From: Octopus vulgaris
Lineage: Eukaryota
Direction: 5' to 3'
NCBI GenBank assembly: GCA_951406725.2
Contig: OX597830.1
Coordinates: forward strand, 66,216,001 to 66,280,000
Length of the DNA stretch: 64,000 bases
This document shows, one piece after another, positions 2,701-63,639 of this stretch; position 1 is the first letter of the stretch; the number at the start of each line of letters is the position of its first letter. The translations under genes and the position numbers were made by a program. The notes below the pieces were generated by a model. That model ran no database searches. It was not told the DNA's origin and worked only from the letters and a program-made list of their open reading frames with translations.

Positions 2701-3391
2701 CTGAAACAGAAAAACAAAAATGACAATACAAACTCATATTTTATATTTCTATTATCTTACTTATTATACAAGATATAATGGTCTTTTAGGACCATTCTTT
2801 TGGCTTCCTGTAGATTTAACCCTTTGTTTTCATATTTCTGTTGAAATATGTTACCTTAGTTTCAAATAAATTTTGAAAACAATGAAGTCTTCAGGAAAAT
2901 AACTGGCGCTTTTAAGCTGGGGTTTGGAATATTTAATATTTTCTCAAAGGGACTTGGTATTTGACAGTTTGAAAACCACAGGCCCGTCACTGTCTTGCTC
3001 CCTACACATTCCAGGCTCCGCAATAAACACAGTGCTCAATCCGTCCTTGCCAAGAGAGCAAACCCATGAAATATTTCCTTCCCTTCTGCATTTCACCAGC
3101 ACACACTGATTTACTGATGTTTATATTGAACATTGACCAAATCAATGTCACCAGTCTTGGAAGACCTGCTCCATCCCTCTGACTAAGCCATTTTTACAAA
3201 AAAATATGCAATTATAGGTGCCAGGTTTTACAATGATTAGTACCAGGCTTGATTGGTTTGACTGAAATTCGTCGAGGCAGTTCCCCAGCATGGCTGCAGT
3301 CCAATGACTGAAACAAGTAAAAGATAAAAAATAAAACAAGAAGAAAAATTACAAAAAAAAAAATGTTTCAAATACTTCAAGACCTACTCAC

Positions 3392-4055
3392 GTTTGCACA
3401 GCTCCAAAATCAAAAGAAGACCAGAATCTTCAGTTGCTATCAACCTACAGGTTTCGTGAGCATTTCCAAAGGGCACAGATGAATCATCATCAGCTGTTAA
3501 CACACAGAATAAAGAGCAGATTGCTTTCACAAGTTCCTTTTCATCTTTGTAAGTTCTAAGTAAGTCCATTGCCTTACTAACAATTTGACCATCGATATAA
3601 CTCTTCTTGTTGGCTTCGTTAGTAATACAAGAAGTACTAATTACTTTGACAGTCTGTAGCAAAATATCAGTGTCAGCACGATATAGCTCAAGTAATTGCA
3701 AGAAATATTTCGTATCTGTTGGTTTCATTAATTTAGATTGCCCCACCAAAAGTACATAAACAGCATTAATAAACCTCTGTAATAACTTGTTGTTCTGGGA
3801 ATCTTGTAGCTTTTGCAAGAATTTATATAAAGTAGTATAAGCATCATTGGTACCGGCAAGCGAACTTTTGGCAAAATCTGCACATTCTTCGACAAAATCC
3901 ATGATCAGTTTCTCTAATTCTACTTCATTGATGTTATCATCAGCCAGGAACTGTTTTAACTGGTTTGTTATTTTTACAGAGGTATGGACGACAGGACCGT
4001 TGTTCTCCGAGGAATAAACTTGGGAGTCTTTCACAATTAAACTCAAATCTACATC
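3392..4055 (-). CDS. ARMC6: ARMC6 second coding exon (664 nt, DVDLSLIVKD...LTADDDSSVPFGNAHETCRLIA...ELCK)
   Basis: Acceptor ttttacgcag|GAT at 4056/4055; donor AAA C|gtgagt at 3392/3391; stop-free (part of ORF 3384..4163). VDLS.IVK and LT.DDD..VPFG.AH motifs match ARMC6. Confidence 0.9.
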
Positions 4056-11862: not shown

Positions 11863-12260
11863 GTTTAAAGAATAAATAGTTCAGAGGTGCCATCAGCGCA
11901 GAAAACAGAAGTTAAGTTAGTGTTAACATATTTAACACACAGAGTATTAAAAATCAAATTATTTGAAATAATTAGATCGTATCAAGAACTGAACTTGTGC
12001 ATTTGTTTTAATATTAAAGAAATTTCATCATTAATATTTGCAAGTCACAACATTGTATTTAAGACTATACTGCGAATGTAAAATAAAATTACTTCGAAAA
12101 TGGAAATCATATTTAGCTGTTGTTTCTTTCTCCATACCTACACATCTGTGTCCCCACCACCGACTTTGTTTCTTCATAACTTTCAGCAAAATGGATATTC
12201 CTAAATAAATTTTCTATATATATGCTTCAGTTGATGTAGATGCCAATTATATCGGAATTT

Positions 12261-12417
12261 ATTTACATTATTTACATTTGACGGATATTTGTCCTCATCT
12301 TGTTTGTTCTTAACACAACGTTTCGGCTGAAATACCCTCCAGCCTTCATCAGGTGTCTTGGGGAAATTGCGAACCTGGGTTCTCATTCCTAAGGTATTTT
12401 TTATGTTGTTGTTGTTG

Positions 12418-12479
<62 letters not shown>

Positions 12480-12676
12480 TAGTTTTATTTTTATAGCATG
12501 CTTTCACTTCACTACCAAGTGCAGCTCTGTGTGCCTTGGGTATGTGTTGTGATTTGTTGTGTATTATTATTATTAATATTATTATTATTATTATTCAGAT
12601 CACTGCTGGGAATCGAACTCGGAATCTTGGGGTTAGTAGCCCGCGCTCTTAACCACCATGCTATATGCCAGTGGGC
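12261..12676 (-). mobile_element. tRNA-headed SINE with (AAT)n linker and hammerhead-bearing 3' tail (copy 1), 12 bp TSD
   Basis: A-box TAGCATGGTGG, B-box GAGTTCGATTCC; TSD ATATCGGAATTT at 12249-12260 and 12677-12688; other copies at 37018 and 60973. Confidence 0.85.
12312..12357 (-). ncRNA. Minimal type I hammerhead ribozyme motif in SINE tail, GUU site
   Basis: Minus strand: GACAC CTGATGA A GGCTG-gagggtattt-CAGCC GAAA CG TT GTGTT. Stem I GACAC/GTGTT, stem II 5 bp, palindromic AACGTT stem III region. Confidence 0.7.
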
Positions 12677-13170
12677 ATATCGGAATTTGTTGTGAAAATG
12701 TTTTTCAGGATTTGCGTAGAATATTTTCAGAAGTTTCATGCGAGTCGAAAAATAGATGAGTTTAGAGCTATGTTTCCTCATAACTCACAGAAAATTGAAC
12801 ATTTTTTGATGAAAATTTTCTACGAATACCTCTCAGGTGGTGTAGATTACAATAATACCAGAATTTAGTGAAGAAAACGGTAAAACAAATAAGTGGGAAC
12901 GTACACGTACATACTGACACACTTCACATATATATCTATATAATGAAAATTGAAACTAAAAAAAAAAAAAAATGTGATGTGTATCAGTAAACGTGTGCAC
13001 ACCCATCATTTTTTTTTTGTTTTTTGTTTTCTCACATTAAATTCCGATTTAATCATAATCTATACCATCTGAAATGAATTTCTAGAAAAATTTCACCGAA
13101 AGATGCCCGTTTTTCTTAAATTTACAAGGAAACAAAGTCAGAAGTGTGAGGACATTTGTATTGGTATGCC

Positions 13171-17089: not shown

Positions 17090-18123
17090 TGCTCTGATGC
17101 AGTACCAGGCAGTGGCTCTCATAGCTTCTGATCTTAACTGATTGGAAGTGTTATCATGTACATTGTTTTGTCTTGGTATAAAAGATGGGCTACAGCAAAT
17201 ATTCTGCTCAACACCACAGATTTGCTTATCAGTTGTTTGACCATAACCAGTTGAGCATGTCCCTTCTGTGGCTGACAATATATGCATTTCTGATCATGAG
17301 CAGAAGTAGTGGGGGAGTATCATAGCTGTGTGTTGAAAGGGATTCTTTGGGGTTTGAATAATTCACCTCTGGAAACATGGGTATTTCATTCAACATACTT
17401 AAACAACTCTTATTCAGGGACCTTTTGAGCGGGATGGGTTACTCGACCAGAAGAAAATTCTAACTGGGCTCCACCTGCAAGGTCATGTGCTGTTTATCTT
17501 GATATGAGATCACCATGTCACACACATATGGTTGTGATACATGTGCGTAGTGTACCCTTATCAAATGGATAGTCATGATGGGTATACTGGGCTTCATATA
17601 TTTTACCCCAGTGTCACTTTGATGGCATGCACTGCTCTCTCACTCAATAATAATAATTTCTATTATGGGCATAAGGCCTGAAATTTTGTAGTTGATGGCT
17701 ACCTGAGATTTCCTTGGTCCCCAGTGCTTGACTGGTACTTATTTCATCAGCCCCAAAAGGATGAAAGGTGAAGACGTCCCCAGAGGAATTTGAACTCAGA
17801 ACATAAATAGGCATAAGATATGCCACTAAGCATTTAATCTGATCTGCTAATGATTCTACCATCTTGCCATCTTTATAAATGTTCCAAATTTTGACAAAAT
17901 GCCAAAAAGTTTCGGTGGTGGAGGTATTTAGTTGATTGTGTTGACCCCAGTAGTTGACTGGTACCTAATTTTATTGAAACCCTTGAAAAGATGATTAGCA
18001 GAGTTACCTGAGCAAGTGCACAAACTTGCAAATATGAATATTATCAATTTCGTTTGTGTGTGATGCGAAGTGATACATTTGGATGAGTTTGCATGTTAAA
18101 TGATTGCTCTACAGTTATACGTA

Positions 18124-18430
18124 GTGGAGGCACATGGCTTAGTGGTTAGAGCAGCAAACTCGTGATCAAGAAATTGCAGGTTCAAATCTCAGACCAGGCG
18201 ATGTGTGTGTTTATGAGCAAAACACCTAAGCTCCATGCGGCTCCGGCAGAAGGTAATGGTGGACTTCTGCGGGGTCTTTCGCCACAACTTTCTCTCACTC
18301 TTTCTTCCTGCATCTAGCAGCTGACCTGCAACGGACCGGCATCCCATCCAGGTGGGGAGCCTATATGCCAATGAAACCAGGAAACTGGCTGTTATGAGCC
18401 AGGGATGGCTTCAGAAGGAACAAACAACAA
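18124..18430 (+). mobile_element. SINE family B head with alternative tail
   Basis: gtggaggcacatggcttagtgg...ggttcaaatc head, tail gacctgcaacggaccggcatcccatccagg..., (AAC)n end. Confidence 0.7.
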
Positions 18431-28865: not shown

Positions 28866-29870
28866 CACAAAGCGTAAGGATGCAGAAAAACATCAACCTG
28901 CTAGAAATAAGAGCTAAAGTCTTAAACCACCATAAAGCACCAAAGTAACAGAGAAATAAAAGTAGGCGAGGAAACAGAAAGAATTAATATATTCAAAAGC
29001 ACACCTATGAAAGATTATGCTATTTAGGATATATCTACATATCCGTGTTTCGGCTTCTGAAAATTTAATCCTTAAGCCTCTTCAGTGTAGACTTCCTGGT
29101 AAAAATTCTAATCTGCCACATTATATATCCGTTAATAAACTGGTCTTGTTTTTTTGCGCCAAAAACACAGCACAAGGTGCAAGAATATTTATGAAGAAAA
29201 CATTAAAACACTAAGGTTTGAAATAAGATGCCACTACTGTTAATATCATCTATGGATAAAATTTGAAATTGATGGAATCAACGGTAGGTGTTATCAACAT
29301 AGGTGCTTCATAGGCAAATAGTGTTATTAAGATATAATATACGAATTAGCATGAAGCGTAAAGATGACGAAACTCAGGTATATAGATCTCTTAAATAGCA
29401 TAATCTTTCATACGTGTGGTCTTGATTATATCAATTCTTTCCATTTCTTCGCCTACTGTTTTACTTCTCTGTTATTTTGGTGCTTTATGGTGGTTTAATT
29501 AAGACTTTAGCCCTTATTTCTAGCAGGTTGATGTTTTTCTGCATCCTTACACTTCAAGCTAATTTGTCTATTATAGCTTAATAATGCTATTTGCCTGTGA
29601 ATCACCTATGTTATTACTGTTGATACCTTCAATTTTATCCATTAACAGTAGTGACATCTTATTTCAAGCCTTAGTGTTCGAATGTTTTGTTTATATATAT
29701 ATATATCAAATATAAATTAAAAACAATACACTGATGTAATAACAGATTGTTTATAAAGCTTGAAACACGTGTACCGCGATATCCTTTGTGTTCTGTTTTT
29801 AATTTATATTTTATACATACTCTCTCACCTCTGCCACTATCTGGCATATACAGGTGATTACACTTATCAA
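28861..29870. mobile_element. Penelope-like element remnant with direct plus inverted pseudo-LTR segments
   Basis: 28861-29052 is inverted at 29368-29563; 29195-29345 is inverted at 29563-29690. Contains hammerhead cores at 29033-29092 (-) and a decayed one at ~29731-29773 (+). Confidence 0.65.
29033..29092 (-). ncRNA. Type I hammerhead motif (stem III decayed)
   Basis: Minus strand: GTCTACA CTGAAGA GGCTT...AAGCC GAAA CACGGATA TGTAGAT; stems I and II intact. Confidence 0.6.
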
Positions 29871-37017: not shown

Positions 37018-37250
37018 AGGCATATGGCATAGTGGTTAAGAGCACGGGCTACTAACCTCAAGATTCTAAGTTAGATTCCAGGCAGTGACCTGAATAATAA
37101 TAATAATAACATCAAAAAATACCTTAGGATTGCGAACCCAGGTTCGAAATTTCCCCAAGACACCTGATGAAGGCTGGAGGGTATATCAGCTGAAACGTTG
37201 TGTTAACAACAAACAAGAAGAGGACAAATATCCATCAAATGTAAATAATG
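37018..37250 (+). mobile_element. tRNA-headed hammerhead-tailed SINE (copy 2); hammerhead at 37159-37204
   Basis: ggcatatggcatagtggttaagagc...(AAT)n...GACAC CTGATGA AGGCTG...CAGCT GAAACGTT GTGTT...aatgtaaataatgt. Confidence 0.85.
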
Positions 37251-37270
37251 TCCTCTGGAGATATTTTGTA

Positions 37271-38753: not shown

Positions 38754-39748
38754 TCAGGTTGAGTAAAAAGAAAGCAATGTTTTTGAACCACGAACAATTT
38801 GTATTGGATTTTTGCAGAGTTTTGAATTTTTTAAACCTTTTTTGCAATTGTCTGATAATACAGACATAGATTGCCCAAATGCATCAATAAATCAACATTG
38901 ATATTCTTTTCACTGTTGTTACAATCATCTGAAATGGAACTGTCAAAGCACGATATTCAAGCAATTTTGCTATTCAGCTTCAGAAAAGGATGTAAAGCAG
39001 CTGAAACCGCTCATGATATCAATGAAACATCTGGTGAGGAAATGACTAGTGAGTGGTCAACTCAAAAATGGTTTAAACGATTTTGGAATGAAGACCTGAG
39101 CCTTGAAGATCGTGAGTGTAGTGGACACCCATCTGTCATTGATGACGGTCAATTAGGGACCGTCATTGAGAAAGATCCACATAAAACCACTCGAAAACTG
39201 GCAAAAGAACTTCAAGTGAACCAGAAAACTGCCTGCAACCATTTGCATGCAACTGGAAAATCAAAAGAGCTTGACAAATGGGTACCACATGATTTGAATG
39301 AAAATCAGAAAATGAGCAGATATGAAATTTACTCATTGCTTCTTCTCCATAACCAGACTGATTCATTTCTTGACTGTATTGTAAGTTGCAATGAAAGGTG
39401 GATTCTGTACAATAATAAAAAATGTTCTTTATAGAGTTTGGACCAAAATGAAGCACTGGAAACCTTCCCTAAACCCGGGGTGGTCTTCAAAAAGAAGGTT
39501 ATGGTGAATATTTGGTGGTGCACTGCTGGACTCATCCACTATAACTTCTTAAACCTAGAAAAACCATCAACGCAGAAACATATTGTCATGAAATTGCCAG
39601 AATAAATGAAAAACTGCTCCTCTACCATTCCAGTCTGGTCAACAGAAGAGAGCCAATCATTCTCCATGACAATGCTTGACCATATGTTTCACTAATGACA
39701 CTCCAGAAATTGAGGGAACGTGATTGCAAAGCTCTTCTCCCCACACCC
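38754..39748 (+). mobile_element. Mariner (DD34D type) element, 3'-truncated pseudo-transposase
   Basis: TA|TCAGGTTGAGTAAAAAG TIR; ORF 38871..39434 with mariner HTH and KWVPHDL; downstream LHDNA; stops and frameshifts. Confidence 0.9.
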
Positions 39749-45473: not shown

Positions 45474-46747
45474 CAAGGGTTGGACAAAATAATGGAAACA
45501 CCTTAAAATTTCAAACAAATTTCTTTTAATATGGGATAGGACCGTCTTTGGCAATAATTACTGCTTGAATTCTATGAGGTATGGACTTGTACAAAGTCTG
45601 AATTGTTTCCACAGGAATTTTTCTCCATTCTTCAGCTAAAACAGTCTGCAGTTCAATAATATTGAGATCTGGGGACTGTAGTGGCCAGATAAGAAGTTCA
45701 ACTTCACTAGAATGTTCCTTGTGCCATTCAGTAACAACTTTAGCTGTGTGAATTGGTGCATTATCATCATGAATGATTGTGTTTCCCTCCGTAAACAGTT
45801 CCACAATCATACTATGAATTTGATCAGATAAAATGCTTAAATAGTCTTGACTATTAATTCTGACATGAAGATAAACCACCGGGCTGGCAGGTTTCCAGGA
45901 TATAGCCCTTCAGATCATCACAGATCCTCCTCCATGTTTAATAGTTGGAAGAGGGCAGTCTGGGTCAAATGCTTATTTTGGATGTCTCCAAGTATATACT
46001 CAGCTGGTGGTCAGAAATAAGGTAAAGGATTACTTGTCCAAGAAAATAACATTCTTTCACTGCTCTAGGGACCAATTGTGTAGGTTTTTTTTACTCCACT
46101 CTAAATGCTTTGCAACATTTGTTTTTGAAAGTAGTGGTTTTCTGATTGCAGCCCTCCCATGAAATCCGGCTTTGTGCAGCTCCTGGCAATCAGTTTTTAT
46201 GGAAACTGGGTTCTGGAGGTGGTCATTAAGCTCTGCAGTAATTTTAGGAGCTATAAACCATTCACACTGGTGTAACATCATCATCCTCATCGTTTAGCGT
46301 CAGGTATTGTTGTATGTTGTATACTTTTGTAATCCTTTCTAACAATTCATGTAAGAGTCTGACGGTCCCTATCTGAAAGTTTTGGTTTTCTACTGGAGTT
46401 TTGTTTTGATGAGGAGGTTTTTCCCTCTTTCTCAAGGCTGAGATTACTTTCAAAACTACTTCTTGATACACCAAACATTTCAGCTGTTTTTGTTACACTA
46501 GCGCCTGCCATACGAACACCGACAATTTGATCTCTTTGAAAGTCCGATTGATCTGTCATTTTAATGAATTTTAATTACCTTTTTCTGATGATATCTGAAA
46601 AGATACAACAATTTTAGCAAAACATATTAAGCAACACTAATAATAAATCAAAAAACATAAAAATAAACAAGCTTTTGACGGTTATATGGATATTTCAAAA
46701 TTATAATGCTATAGTGCTAGATGGTTCCATTATTTTGTCCAACTCTG
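45474..46747 (-). mobile_element. Tc1-like (DD34E) element, near full length, decayed
   Basis: TIR ..GTTGGACAAAATAATGGAA at both ends; transposase pieces MTDQSDFQRDQIVG...GVSR, AAIRKPLLS, HDDNAPIH...WPLQSPDLNIIE. Confidence 0.9.
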
Positions 46748-60797: not shown

Positions 60798-60972
60798 TCC
60801 TATATGTACAGATCATTGTGTCTGTGTTTTTGCGTATGTGTTTGTCCTCTGCCACTGCTTAACAAATGGTGTTGGTTTGTTTATGTCCTTGTCACTTAGC
60901 AGTTTGGCAAAAGAACTGACAGAATAAGTTCCAGACTTTAAAAAAAAAAACAAGCACTGTGGTCAATATAAT

Positions 60973-61524
60973 ACAGTTCTATATTTCAGAGATGAGGAAT
61001 TATGTACATTACTCTTTTACTTGTTTTAGTCATTTGACTGTGGCCATGCTGGAGCACCGCCTTTTTAGTTGAGCAAATCGACCCCAGGACTTATTCTTTG
61101 TAAGCCTAGTACAAATTCTATCGGTGTCTTTTGCCGAACCGCTAAGTTACGGGGACGTAAACACACCAGCATCGGTTGTCAAGCGATGTTGAGGGGACAA
61201 ACACAGACACACAAACATATACACACATATATATATGATGGGCTTCTTTCAGTTTCCATCTACCAAATCCACTCACAAGGCTTTGGCTGGCCCAAGGCTA
61301 TAGAAGACACTTGCCCAAGGTGTCACGCAGTGGGACTGAACCCAGAACCATGTGGTTCATAAGCAAGCTACTCCTATGCCATTATTTACATTATTTAGAT
61401 TTGACTGATATTTGTCCTCATCTTGTTTGTTGTTAACACATTTCAGCTAATATAGCCTCCAGCCTTCATCAGGTGTCTTGGGGAAATTTCAAACCTGCGT
61501 TCTCATTCCTAAGGTATTTTTCGA

Positions 61525-61579
<55 letters not shown>

Positions 61580-61666
61580 TTTATTCAGGTCACTGCCTGG
61601 AATCAAACTCGGAATCTTGGGGTTAGTAGCCTGCGCTCTTAACCACTACGCCATATGCCAGTGGGC
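60973..61666 (-). mobile_element. tRNA-headed hammerhead-tailed SINE (copy 3, hammerhead decayed), interrupted by a family A SINE at ~61011-61380
   Basis: Head 61585-61666, (AAT)n, decayed hammerhead 61435-61477. The tail appears to resume at 60973-61010 (short catta duplication around the inserted SINE). Confidence 0.75.
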
Positions 61667-63639
61667 ATTAGCCCCAAGATTTCGAGTTTGCTCAAGGACA
61701 CTGCACATCATCAGGTATATGGCATATGCCTGATGATGGAGCACTTAGCTACTTGCTGTTAACTTCATAAGCAGGCTATTCCATTCTGTTGATCGGATCA
61801 ACTAGAACACTTGTCATCATAACTGAAGGAGTGCCAGTTTACATGTGTGTGAGAGTGTATTTGTATTGTTTAATCTATACAAATTAAGTAAGCTGTATAT
61901 GTATATTCTACTCTTTTGTATATATTTATTTTCTTGGCTACTGGGGATAAGTTAGGAAAATTGCTGTGCTGATGATGCCTGTTGAAGGCAGAAACATGCA
62001 TCCATGAATGGCCTCTTCTACCCAGACAATAAGCCCAGCAAACTGGCTTCTGTGCCGGTGACATGTAGGAGGCACCATTCGAGCGGGATCGTTACCAGCA
62101 TCGCCCCGACTGGCACCTGTGCCGTTGGCATGTGTAAAAAATTCGAGCGAGGTCAATCCCAGTACCGCCTGACTGGCACCCGTGCCAGTGGCACGCAAAA
62201 GCACCCACTACACTCTCGGAGTCTACCAAATCCACTCACAAGGCATTGGTCGGCCCGGGGCTATAGCAGAAGACACTGTAGAAACTCTGCCAGATCAAGA
62301 CTGGAGCCTGGTGCAGCCATCTGGTTCACCAGCCCACAGTCAAACTGTCCAACCCATGCTAGCATGGAAAACGGATGTTAAATGATAATGATGATGATGA
62401 TGATGATCGACTGCAGAGAATTCTTGATCCTTGAGATTGACTCCCCTTCTCATGTGGAGCTGGTCATAATTGCCATTTGGTAATTATTGTATTCTTTAGA
62501 GGCAGAAATAATTTTCATAACTTGAGAACTTATGTTGTATGGTATTTGATATACCTGTATATTTTATCTGTCTTGTACATGCCACTGCCCGTTCTTAGCT
62601 CGTTTTTGTTTCATAAAGTTTTAAGCTCACCCACGCATACATTCACAAGTGCTCACCCCCATTTACACATACATACTCCATCCTTACATACATAAATGTG
62701 CTTGCACACTCTAGTTCAGCCAGGTCACTGTTATTATCTCCCTTTCACTCAGCCTCTTTCTTGCAGTCATATCATTAAGCTGAACCATTAACCCCTACAT
62801 ATCTTCTTTCTCTCTCCATGTTTTCTCTTAACCATTTCTGCTGAAGTGCATAGGCTCGAAATATCAAAGACTTTTCCATTCTTCCTGAGCATCAAGCTGA
62901 TAAGGTTGCTTGTTGTTCCCCCACCTTGTCTTTGTCTTTTGATTTCTGTAAATTTGAACTAGATATATGTGTATGTCTCTGTCTATATGTATTTCTTTAC
63001 TACCCACAAGGGGCTAAACACAGAGGGGACAAACAAGAACAGACAAATGGATTAAGTCGATTACATCGACCCCAGTGCGTAACTGGTACTTAATTTATCG
63101 ACCCTGAAAGGATAAAAGGCAAAGTCGACCTCGACGGAATTTGAACTCAGAACGTAACGGCAGACGGAATACAGCTACACATTTCGCCCGGCGTGCTAAC
63201 GTTTCTGCCAGCTCGTCTCTGTCTATATATATGTATGTTGGTGTGTGTATGTGCATATATATATAGAAATATTCTTTTACTCTTATATATGTATCAGGGA
63301 TGTGCCATATACGTAGGCAGTGCCTATCTTGAATAAAATAGATTGATAGCAACATTTTCCTCTCATGGCAAAATATGCACCTAATTCAATAAAAAATAAA
63401 ATAAAAGGTTACTATGCATAAAATGCAAAATGTTTTATTTTTCTGTAGATTAGGTAGGCATAATTCACCCCTGCTTTTCAATCTCAGTATTTAAGCTACA
63501 CATAGTACTGCTGTAGTACATGTGCTGGGTACATTTCAACAACTCTGTTTTCTTTATGTGTAATAAAGGCAGAAATAGATCTGCCTTCAACTCAGTCGGG
63601 CAACTGTGTTTCATTTATGTTTTGTGTGCTGATATATAT

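Follow-up and report, generated by a model that had tools for sequence, protein, structure and literature searches.

The window analysed here is the whole 64,000-nucleotide stretch of Octopus vulgaris contig OX597830.1 (assembly GCA_951406725.2, positions 66,216,001 to 66,280,000, forward strand). It holds a long ARMC6 coding exon (3387-4055, minus strand; 100% identical to the O. vulgaris protein), remnants of Mariner/Tc1 transposases at 38859-39434 (plus strand) and 45526-45909 (minus strand; Pfam HTH_48 and DDE_3), and three copies of a dispersed, non-coding repeat that measures ~240-275 nt without its inserts. The three copies lie where a preliminary description had placed them, and all three are built alike, from a head resembling a tRNA, a linker of (AAT)n and a tail that contains a hammerhead motif, as follows.

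12261-12676, minus strand: copy 1, whole, with the short (tail-less) end
12677-12688, minus strand: upstream target-site duplication of copy 1, 12 bp, AT-rich and containing ATT, identical to 12249-12260
12249-12260, minus strand: downstream target-site duplication of copy 1, the identical 12-mer
12597-12676, minus strand: tRNA-like head of copy 1 (A box 12653-12663, B box 12609-12618)
12402-12596, minus strand: (AAT)n/(AAC)n linker of copy 1, holding an unrelated insert of ~85 nt
about 12477-12562, minus strand: the ~85-nt linker insert, which itself ends in TG(AAT)n
12261-12401, minus strand: Penelope-type 3' part of copy 1, short end
12312-12357, minus strand: minimal type I hammerhead of copy 1 (CUGAUGA core from 12352)
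about 37019-37251, plus strand: copy 2, whole, its first ~7 nt missing
37019-37091, plus strand: tRNA-like head of copy 2, directly next to another repeat (A box starting at 37025, B box at 37070)
37092-37114, plus strand: short (AAT)n linker of copy 2
37115-37251, plus strand: Penelope-type 3' part of copy 2, short end
37159-37204, plus strand: hammerhead of copy 2 (N7 37168, G12 37192, predicted cut after 37199)
60972-61666, minus strand: copy 3, whole, including a different SINE nested in it
61669-61690, minus strand: inverted piece of copy 3's own head, 22 nt, directly upstream of its 5' end
61587-61666, minus strand: tRNA-like head of copy 3 (A box starting at 61653, B box at 61608)
61522-61586, minus strand: (AAT)n linker of copy 3
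61381-61521, minus strand: Penelope-type 3' part of copy 3 (hammerhead 61435-61477)
61012-61380, minus strand: a different, abundant SINE of ~370 nt nested in the end of copy 3, outside the family
60972-61005, minus strand: optional 3' tail of copy 3, 34 nt, absent from copies 1 and 2

The earlier proposal of a cephalopod tRNA-headed SINE with a Penelope-type 3' part is supported. The anatomy is constant in all three copies: in each, 45 nt separate the start of the A box from that of the B box, the head occupies ~75-80 nt, and the linker joins the 3' part at the same position every time. Between copies the heads are 86-90% and the tails 89-93% identical. The exact 12-bp duplication around copy 1 encloses both head and hammerhead, so the claim that the two moved as one unit stands; 12-mers of this kind were shared by only 24 of 20,000 random 30-nt window pairs (simple-repeat pairs being counted as misses). 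Neither copy 2 nor copy 3 has a target duplication of its own, so that a duplication is found in one of the three copies, as is a 5' inversion. BLAST of the window returned no head-only or tail-only copy apart from a 27-nt head match at 18128, where a different tRNA-like repeat has a head with the same A-box region (18120-18200, plus strand). The insert in the copy 1 linker has no second copy in the window and is likely the 3' end of another retroposon that landed in the microsatellite. Copy 3 owes its greater length to the nested SINE, which is absent from the preliminary description, is flanked by a duplication of 12 of 13 bp (61381-61393 and 60999-61011, read by eye) and may resemble the CORE-type octopus SINEs; this ~370-nt type occurs at many other places in the window.

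The hammerhead is complete in copies 1 and 2; copy 3 lacks three nucleotides of stem III and its motif is predicted to be inactive. In copy 1 a 5-bp stem I is followed by an extra A after A9, an 8-bp stem II opening with G-C and a palindromic ACGU stem III, with the predicted cut between 12317 and 12316; copy 2 combines a 5-bp stem I, CUGAUGA, the extra A and a 6-bp stem II opening with G-U, and both copies have GAA, the palindromic ACGU and a GUU site. The minimal hammerheads of Penelope-like elements (PLEs) are described as having an intervening nucleotide between 9 and 10.1, a G10.1-C11.1 pair, a palindromic 15.2-16.2 and a long stem II beside a stem I of 4-5 bp, and as cleaving weakly as dimers and not at all as monomers (Cervera and de la Pena, PMC4209133). 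All four structural features given in that paper are present in copies 1 and 2, along with the CUGANGA and GAAA core and a stem II of up to 7-8 bp, and we agree with the earlier assignment of the tail to the Penelope type (PMC4209133). Predicted folding energies of monomers were no better than those of shuffled sequences (z from -0.8 to +0.8). The unconstrained dimer minimum (-36.6 kcal/mol) was other than the active form and the constrained partial dimer was weaker (-25.3), so folding lends the active dimer no support. A structure-aware scan returned five type I motifs in the window, of which two belong to copies 1 and 2; in 30 local shuffles the average was 0.07. Four unrelated hammerhead-like motifs lie at 29085 (minus strand), 61969 (plus), 7876 (plus) and 24652 (plus), of which those at 29085 and 61969 pass the stem test; these four are likely other PLE end fragments, and the flank of the one at 29085 has an inverted 79-nt partner at 29362-29438. 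Upstream of copy 3, a hairpin at about 61707-61739 (minus strand) holds in one arm CCTGATGA, which corresponds to the opening half of a hammerhead core, the other half not being seen.

The tRNA-like character of the head emerges only when thresholds are relaxed. ARAGORN called the head of copy 1 at -ps85 (0 of 500 shuffles) and that of copy 2 at -ps75 (9 of 500), and made no tRNA call at its default setting; Rfam tRNA and hammerhead models gave no match on the copy 1 region or the copy 3 head, nor any among the 150 of 239 whole-window matches listed. The copy 1 head has ACT in its anticodon loop and a short hairpin at its 5' end. TTTT is absent inside all copies, occurring first in the flank at +69, +12 and +22 for copies 1, 2 and 3, respectively, but RNA reads are equal on both strands and show no pile-up of starts. 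Equal strands are what read-through transcription would give.

The RNA sample covered some 6 in 100 of the reads in two cDNA runs, both belonging to a single study (9249 and 7430 matching reads), from libraries that would likely lose short Pol III products. Nowhere in these reads do molecule starts or ends pile up, the cut site included, and no circular or unit-length RNA bounded by the cut site was seen in this sample, among the joints listed. The preliminary description had called the repeat retrozyme-like and possibly self-cleaved or circularised, and had pointed to RNA ends at the GUU site and to circular junctions as its signs; neither sign was found, no going-back joint being present among the 15 of 126 RNA joints listed, and the copies are single with one hammerhead each. 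We regard the repeat as real, family-wide and unusual, and the retrozyme label as one to be dropped. Lack of RNA-seq ends at the hammerhead cut site is likewise reported for an active PLE of the anole (PMC11167929). Places with A>G or T>C changes numbered 53 and 58 in RNA, as compared to 14 and 12 in DNA. Six of the sites listed (37120, 37149, 37150, 37188, 37213 and 37229, the fourth within hammerhead stem II), taken over the whole family, reach 14-25% in RNA on both strands and stay under 1% in DNA contigs; RNA and DNA come from different animals, and these changes likely represent A-to-I editing of copies inside longer transcripts.

The SINE stops at either of two 3' ends, one of them some 52 nt and the other some 86 nt beyond the predicted cut site. 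Copy 1 ends 56 nt and copy 2 52 nt past it, and copy 3 runs 34 nt further. In the two RNA runs 2776 and 2026 reads continue past 37251, and the commonest continuation, taken as a consensus, is the 34-nt tail of copy 3; agreement with that tail is no higher than 0.55-0.57, which makes a mixture of tailed and tail-less forms likely. Among DNA contigs, 303 and 308 depart at 37251 into mixed, AT-rich sequence. The extension is thus found in one of the three window copies and in the loose ends of RNA, and DNA contigs also stop at the short site. An optional tail of 30-40 bp is described as unique to PLEs and is explained by two internal start sites for reverse transcription (Frangieh et al., PMC11167929), an optional tail of 31 bp having also been reported (Arkhipova et al., PMC3846280), and the two ends of the SINE match this pattern. 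According to the same sources, the PLE protein nicks at ATT, hammerhead mutants insert normally and the anole element primes without homology (PMC11167929), PLE inserts can carry duplications of 8-10 bp or none, head-to-head inversions occur, and pLTRs have mobilised unrelated DNA in trans (PMC3846280). Two features of the ends are LINE-like: the 9-nt unit at which the short end lies recurs many times over in the DNA loose ends, and the target of copy 1 and the start of the tail have 6 nt in common. At the 5' end, the inverted piece of copy 3 is identical at 20 of 22 positions, a score reached by none of 2000 flank shuffles, and 4 of the 15 RNA joints listed (126 in total) connect opposite strands there. 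This inversion and these joints fit the head-to-head inversions of PLEs; 5' inversions also arise by LINE twin priming.

Words of copy 2 were found in 20 sequencing runs from 14 studies, under five organism labels and as a small share of one metagenome. In two DNA runs 29,396 and 15,790 contigs match the copy 2 stretch (a share of them through a flanking repeat), and summed depth over the hammerhead is ~10^5 times that of single long contigs; such depth is no copy number, and it is the three copies in 64 kb that would imply tens of thousands of copies or more. Depth over the tail exceeds that over the head ~2 times in RNA and ~5 times in DNA, two contigs under a second organism label span head and tail together, and two going-back DNA joints (37250 to 37091 and 37251 to 37069) were seen at near single-copy depth. 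Inserted copies decay neutrally: CpG changes reach 8.7% and 6.7% at G12 and 15% and 14% in stem III, as compared to 9-17% elsewhere in the element. A transversion at N7, the one free position of the core, is found at 11% and 16% in the two DNA runs; once changes private to copy 2 are set aside, 37239 is the only other position with a transversion of at least 4%, in one run, and a non-CpG transition in loop II reaches 8% and 7%. These variants come from the 40 of 118 listed, among which are all DNA transversions of at least 4%; further transitions in the core may lie among the others. They hint that the core is under constraint in source elements, a hint given by the single site N7, whose variant may come from tail-only elements.

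To place the motif, metagenomes were scanned for the same hammerhead core and stem II, which returned 19 matches in 18 loci. With 26 long homologs of a fragment of locus L014 as queries, tblastn found matches to reverse-transcriptase-bearing proteins just upstream of the motif in five of the 18 (L006, L008, L014, L015 and L018), belonging to two independent families; L006 and L014 are near-identical, and eight of the loci are one family from one assembly. The five short L014 fragments had no Pfam match, and their identity rests on homologs, of which the four that were domain-scanned all carry RVT_1 and two also GIY-YIG. In six loci (L002, L016, L019, L004, L005 and L009) no upstream coding remnant was found. 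In the PLE family seen in L003-L018, three of nine ends lie ~55 nt past the cut, five ~50 nt further and one earlier. Beyond the ~38-nt hammerhead that the search pattern demanded, these loci share nothing with the SINE, so they show the kind of motif and not the donor; nor do the 26 long PLE-like proteins match anything in the 64-kb window that could be an autonomous partner. At L013 a PLE end lies right behind (AAT)n. Locus L008 has, at 1325-1763, two hammerhead PLE ends in head-to-head inversion, one tailed and one tail-less. L002/L016/L019 and L004/L005/L009 form two repeat families with the same core, possibly non-autonomous PLE derivatives, and the latter three have G where the cleavage-site base is expected. 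A match in a phage-like viral contig (L001), with only 19 nt in common, was set aside as chance.

From the PLE-type hammerhead, the two 3' ends, the inverted piece at the 5' end and the presence of the motif behind PLE remnants we draw the reading that this is a SINE transcribed by Pol III whose RNA, left uncut, is copied in trans by a Penelope reverse transcriptase/GIY-YIG protein, which we think probable, if by a modest measure. The earlier suggestion that Penelope machinery mobilises the element gains indirect support from the ends, the inversion and the PLE remnants; the suggestion of cleavage and circularisation finds none here. One could envision the family arising by insertion of a PLE end, truncated on its 5' side, into the (AAT)n with which a simple tRNA-derived SINE ended, an origin made likely by the preference of PLEs for microsatellites (PMC8557442) together with the join seen at L013. 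Pol III would start at the internal A/B promoter and, because there is no TTTT inside the element, would read through the whole end into the flank. The PLE protein would bind this uncut RNA and nick AT-rich DNA, and reverse transcription would start inside the RNA, ~52 or ~86 nt past the cut site, yielding copies without or with the 34-nt tail, after which 5' joining would leave sometimes a duplication and sometimes a fold-back piece. That the template is uncut follows from the extent of the copies, which span the tRNA-like 5' end to beyond the cut site. Under such circumstances the hammerhead would have weak activity, dependent on dimer formation or on the help of a protein, and would be dispensable for insertion; because a cut would take the head off the template, it may serve instead as a brake or as part of the fold that is recognised. 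With a promoter inside the element, each insert could also be transcribed on its own, free of the partial tandems on which PLE transcription depends. More broadly, these octopus repeats may represent a class of SINEs with a PLE partner, in which a tRNA promoter joined to a pLTR end of 140-170 nt gives self-transcribing single inserts at very high copy in several octopod species, and in which source copies keep the hammerhead either for its fold, which a telomerase-like PLE protein would read, or for a cleavage that, assisted by protein, would hold the parasite in check; we regard this wider proposal as evenly poised.

Alternatively, the repeat could be a SINE mobilised by a LINE, with a captured PLE fragment as passenger, priming on the 9-nt AT-rich repeats and a hammerhead that is a relic. 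The 12-bp duplication of copy 1, the repeated 9-nt unit at the short end of DNA loose ends, the 6 nt common to the copy 1 target and the tail, and the decay of core CpGs at the rate seen elsewhere in the element all speak for it, as does the definition of SINEs as LINE-dependent (PMC3531059). However, both models predict that inserted copies decay neutrally, the family-level variants among the 40 of 118 listed spare the fixed core with the exception of N7, and both copy 3 and the RNA reads continue past the repeats into a non-repetitive extension of 34 nt, the size of a PLE tail. We consider a LINE-borne passenger unlikely.

Two further explanations seem to us less probable still. In a cycle like that of retrozymes or Sm-alpha, hammerheads in a tandem source would cut out monomers that circularise and are reverse transcribed, the dispersed copies being their offspring. 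The ribozyme class is the same, the Schistosoma repeat also has tRNA sequence (PMC6765202, PMC4918200), and the two near single-copy going-back DNA joints show that partial tandems exist. A cleaved monomer, however, would end at the cut, and the copies end 52-86 nt past it; all three are monomers whose first nucleotide coincides with the tRNA-like 5' end or lies no more than ~7 nt from it, RNA ends do not pile up, and no going-back joint is among the 15 of 126 RNA joints listed. Moreover, a Pol III RNA with a 5'-triphosphate and a single hammerhead cannot yield ligatable ends on one molecule. The predicted cut would also leave the head on a different molecule from the 3' end, where copying begins. 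We judge this cycle very doubtful. The last possibility, that head and tail are independent repeats brought together by PLE ends landing time and again in the (AAT)n of a simple SINE, would draw on the taste of PLEs for microsatellites (PMC8557442), on L013 with its PLE end directly behind (AAT)n, and on a tail depth ~2 (RNA) and ~5 (DNA) times that of the head, which makes tail-only copies likely. It is hard to reconcile with an identical head-tail junction in all three window copies and no single-part copy beside them, with a duplication that encloses head and tail, with heads and tails that have diverged alike and with the two contigs of the second organism label that span both; private changes in the copy 2 head also lower its depth. 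We consider independent assembly extremely improbable.

SINEs are defined as parasites of LINEs, to which Pol III-driven parasites of LTR elements have recently been added. If the PLE-partner reading is true, a SINE driven by PLEs would bring in the third retroelement class and complete the picture of Pol III-driven parasites; it would also supply many natural insertions from which to read PLE start sites, targets and 5' joins, and would provide the PLE protein with a minimal cis-element of natural origin. The purpose of the PLE hammerhead becomes testable, as subfamily consensuses either keep the catalytic core or lose it.

The octopus SINEs OK and OR1, reportedly described by Ohshima and Okada in 1994, are said to have Lys/Arg heads. 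The hammerhead SINE, with ACT in its anticodon loop, differs in this from both and resembles OK, OR1 and OR2 in being tRNA-derived; the comparison is by description only, and the family may already have a name. OR2 is a CORE SINE (PMC4758252). Titles and passages from a literature search described no PLE-mobilised tRNA SINE and no octopus hammerhead SINE, nor do passages of PMC6962438, PMC6685494 and PMC4758252; any existing name would probably come without the PLE-partner reading. Like tRNA-derived SINEs in general (PMC3531059), the octopus repeat is under 700 bp, headed by A and B boxes, non-coding, dispersed and of high copy. In contrast to them, its 3' part appears to be of PLE type and not LINE-derived, as far as the sequences compared allow, and in a share of copies its end passes the simple repeats.

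A close parallel in composition is with the Sm-alpha and Sj-alpha repeats of Schistosoma (PMC6765202, PMC4918200), which likewise join a tRNA-related Pol III promoter to a type I hammerhead. Those repeats are described as tandem units released by cleavage, whereas the octopus copies are monomers whose ends lie off the cut site, and the octopus motif is of the minimal PLE form, unlike that of Sm-alpha/Sj-alpha in these accounts. Animal non-LTR retrozymes (PMC7229834; 10.64898/2026.07.22.740005) are also non-autonomous carriers of type I hammerheads, for which, as for the octopus SINE, derivation from PLEs and PLE-driven mobility have been proposed (10.64898/2026.07.22.740005, PMC7229834); they differ in being defined by a tandem arrangement, at least two hammerheads and RNAs that are circular (PMC7229834). 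The 2026 preprint that derives retrozymes from PLEs (10.64898/2026.07.22.740005) mentions no tRNA, polymerase III or mollusc in its text. As in TRIMp3 elements (Cassandra, Helenus and Ajax; PMC10886601), a Pol III promoter is joined to cis-sequences of a retroelement other than a LINE, but the partner of TRIMp3 is described as an LTR retrotransposon with two LTRs, a PBS and a PPT, none of which the octopus SINE has. The 3' part can further be compared to the pLTRs of endonuclease-bearing PLEs themselves (Penelope/Poseidon, Neptune and Nematis; PMC4209133, PMC11167929, PMC3846280): as these elements are described, both have the same hammerhead architecture near the 3' end, an optional tail of 30-40 bp, an AT-rich target, duplications of variable occurrence and RNA-seq reads that do not end at the cut site, and the inverted 5' piece of copy 3 resembles theirs. 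The octopus SINE differs in having no open reading frame, its tRNA-like promoter and (AAT)n taking the place of the rest of the element, and in occurring as single copies where PLEs are partial tandems.
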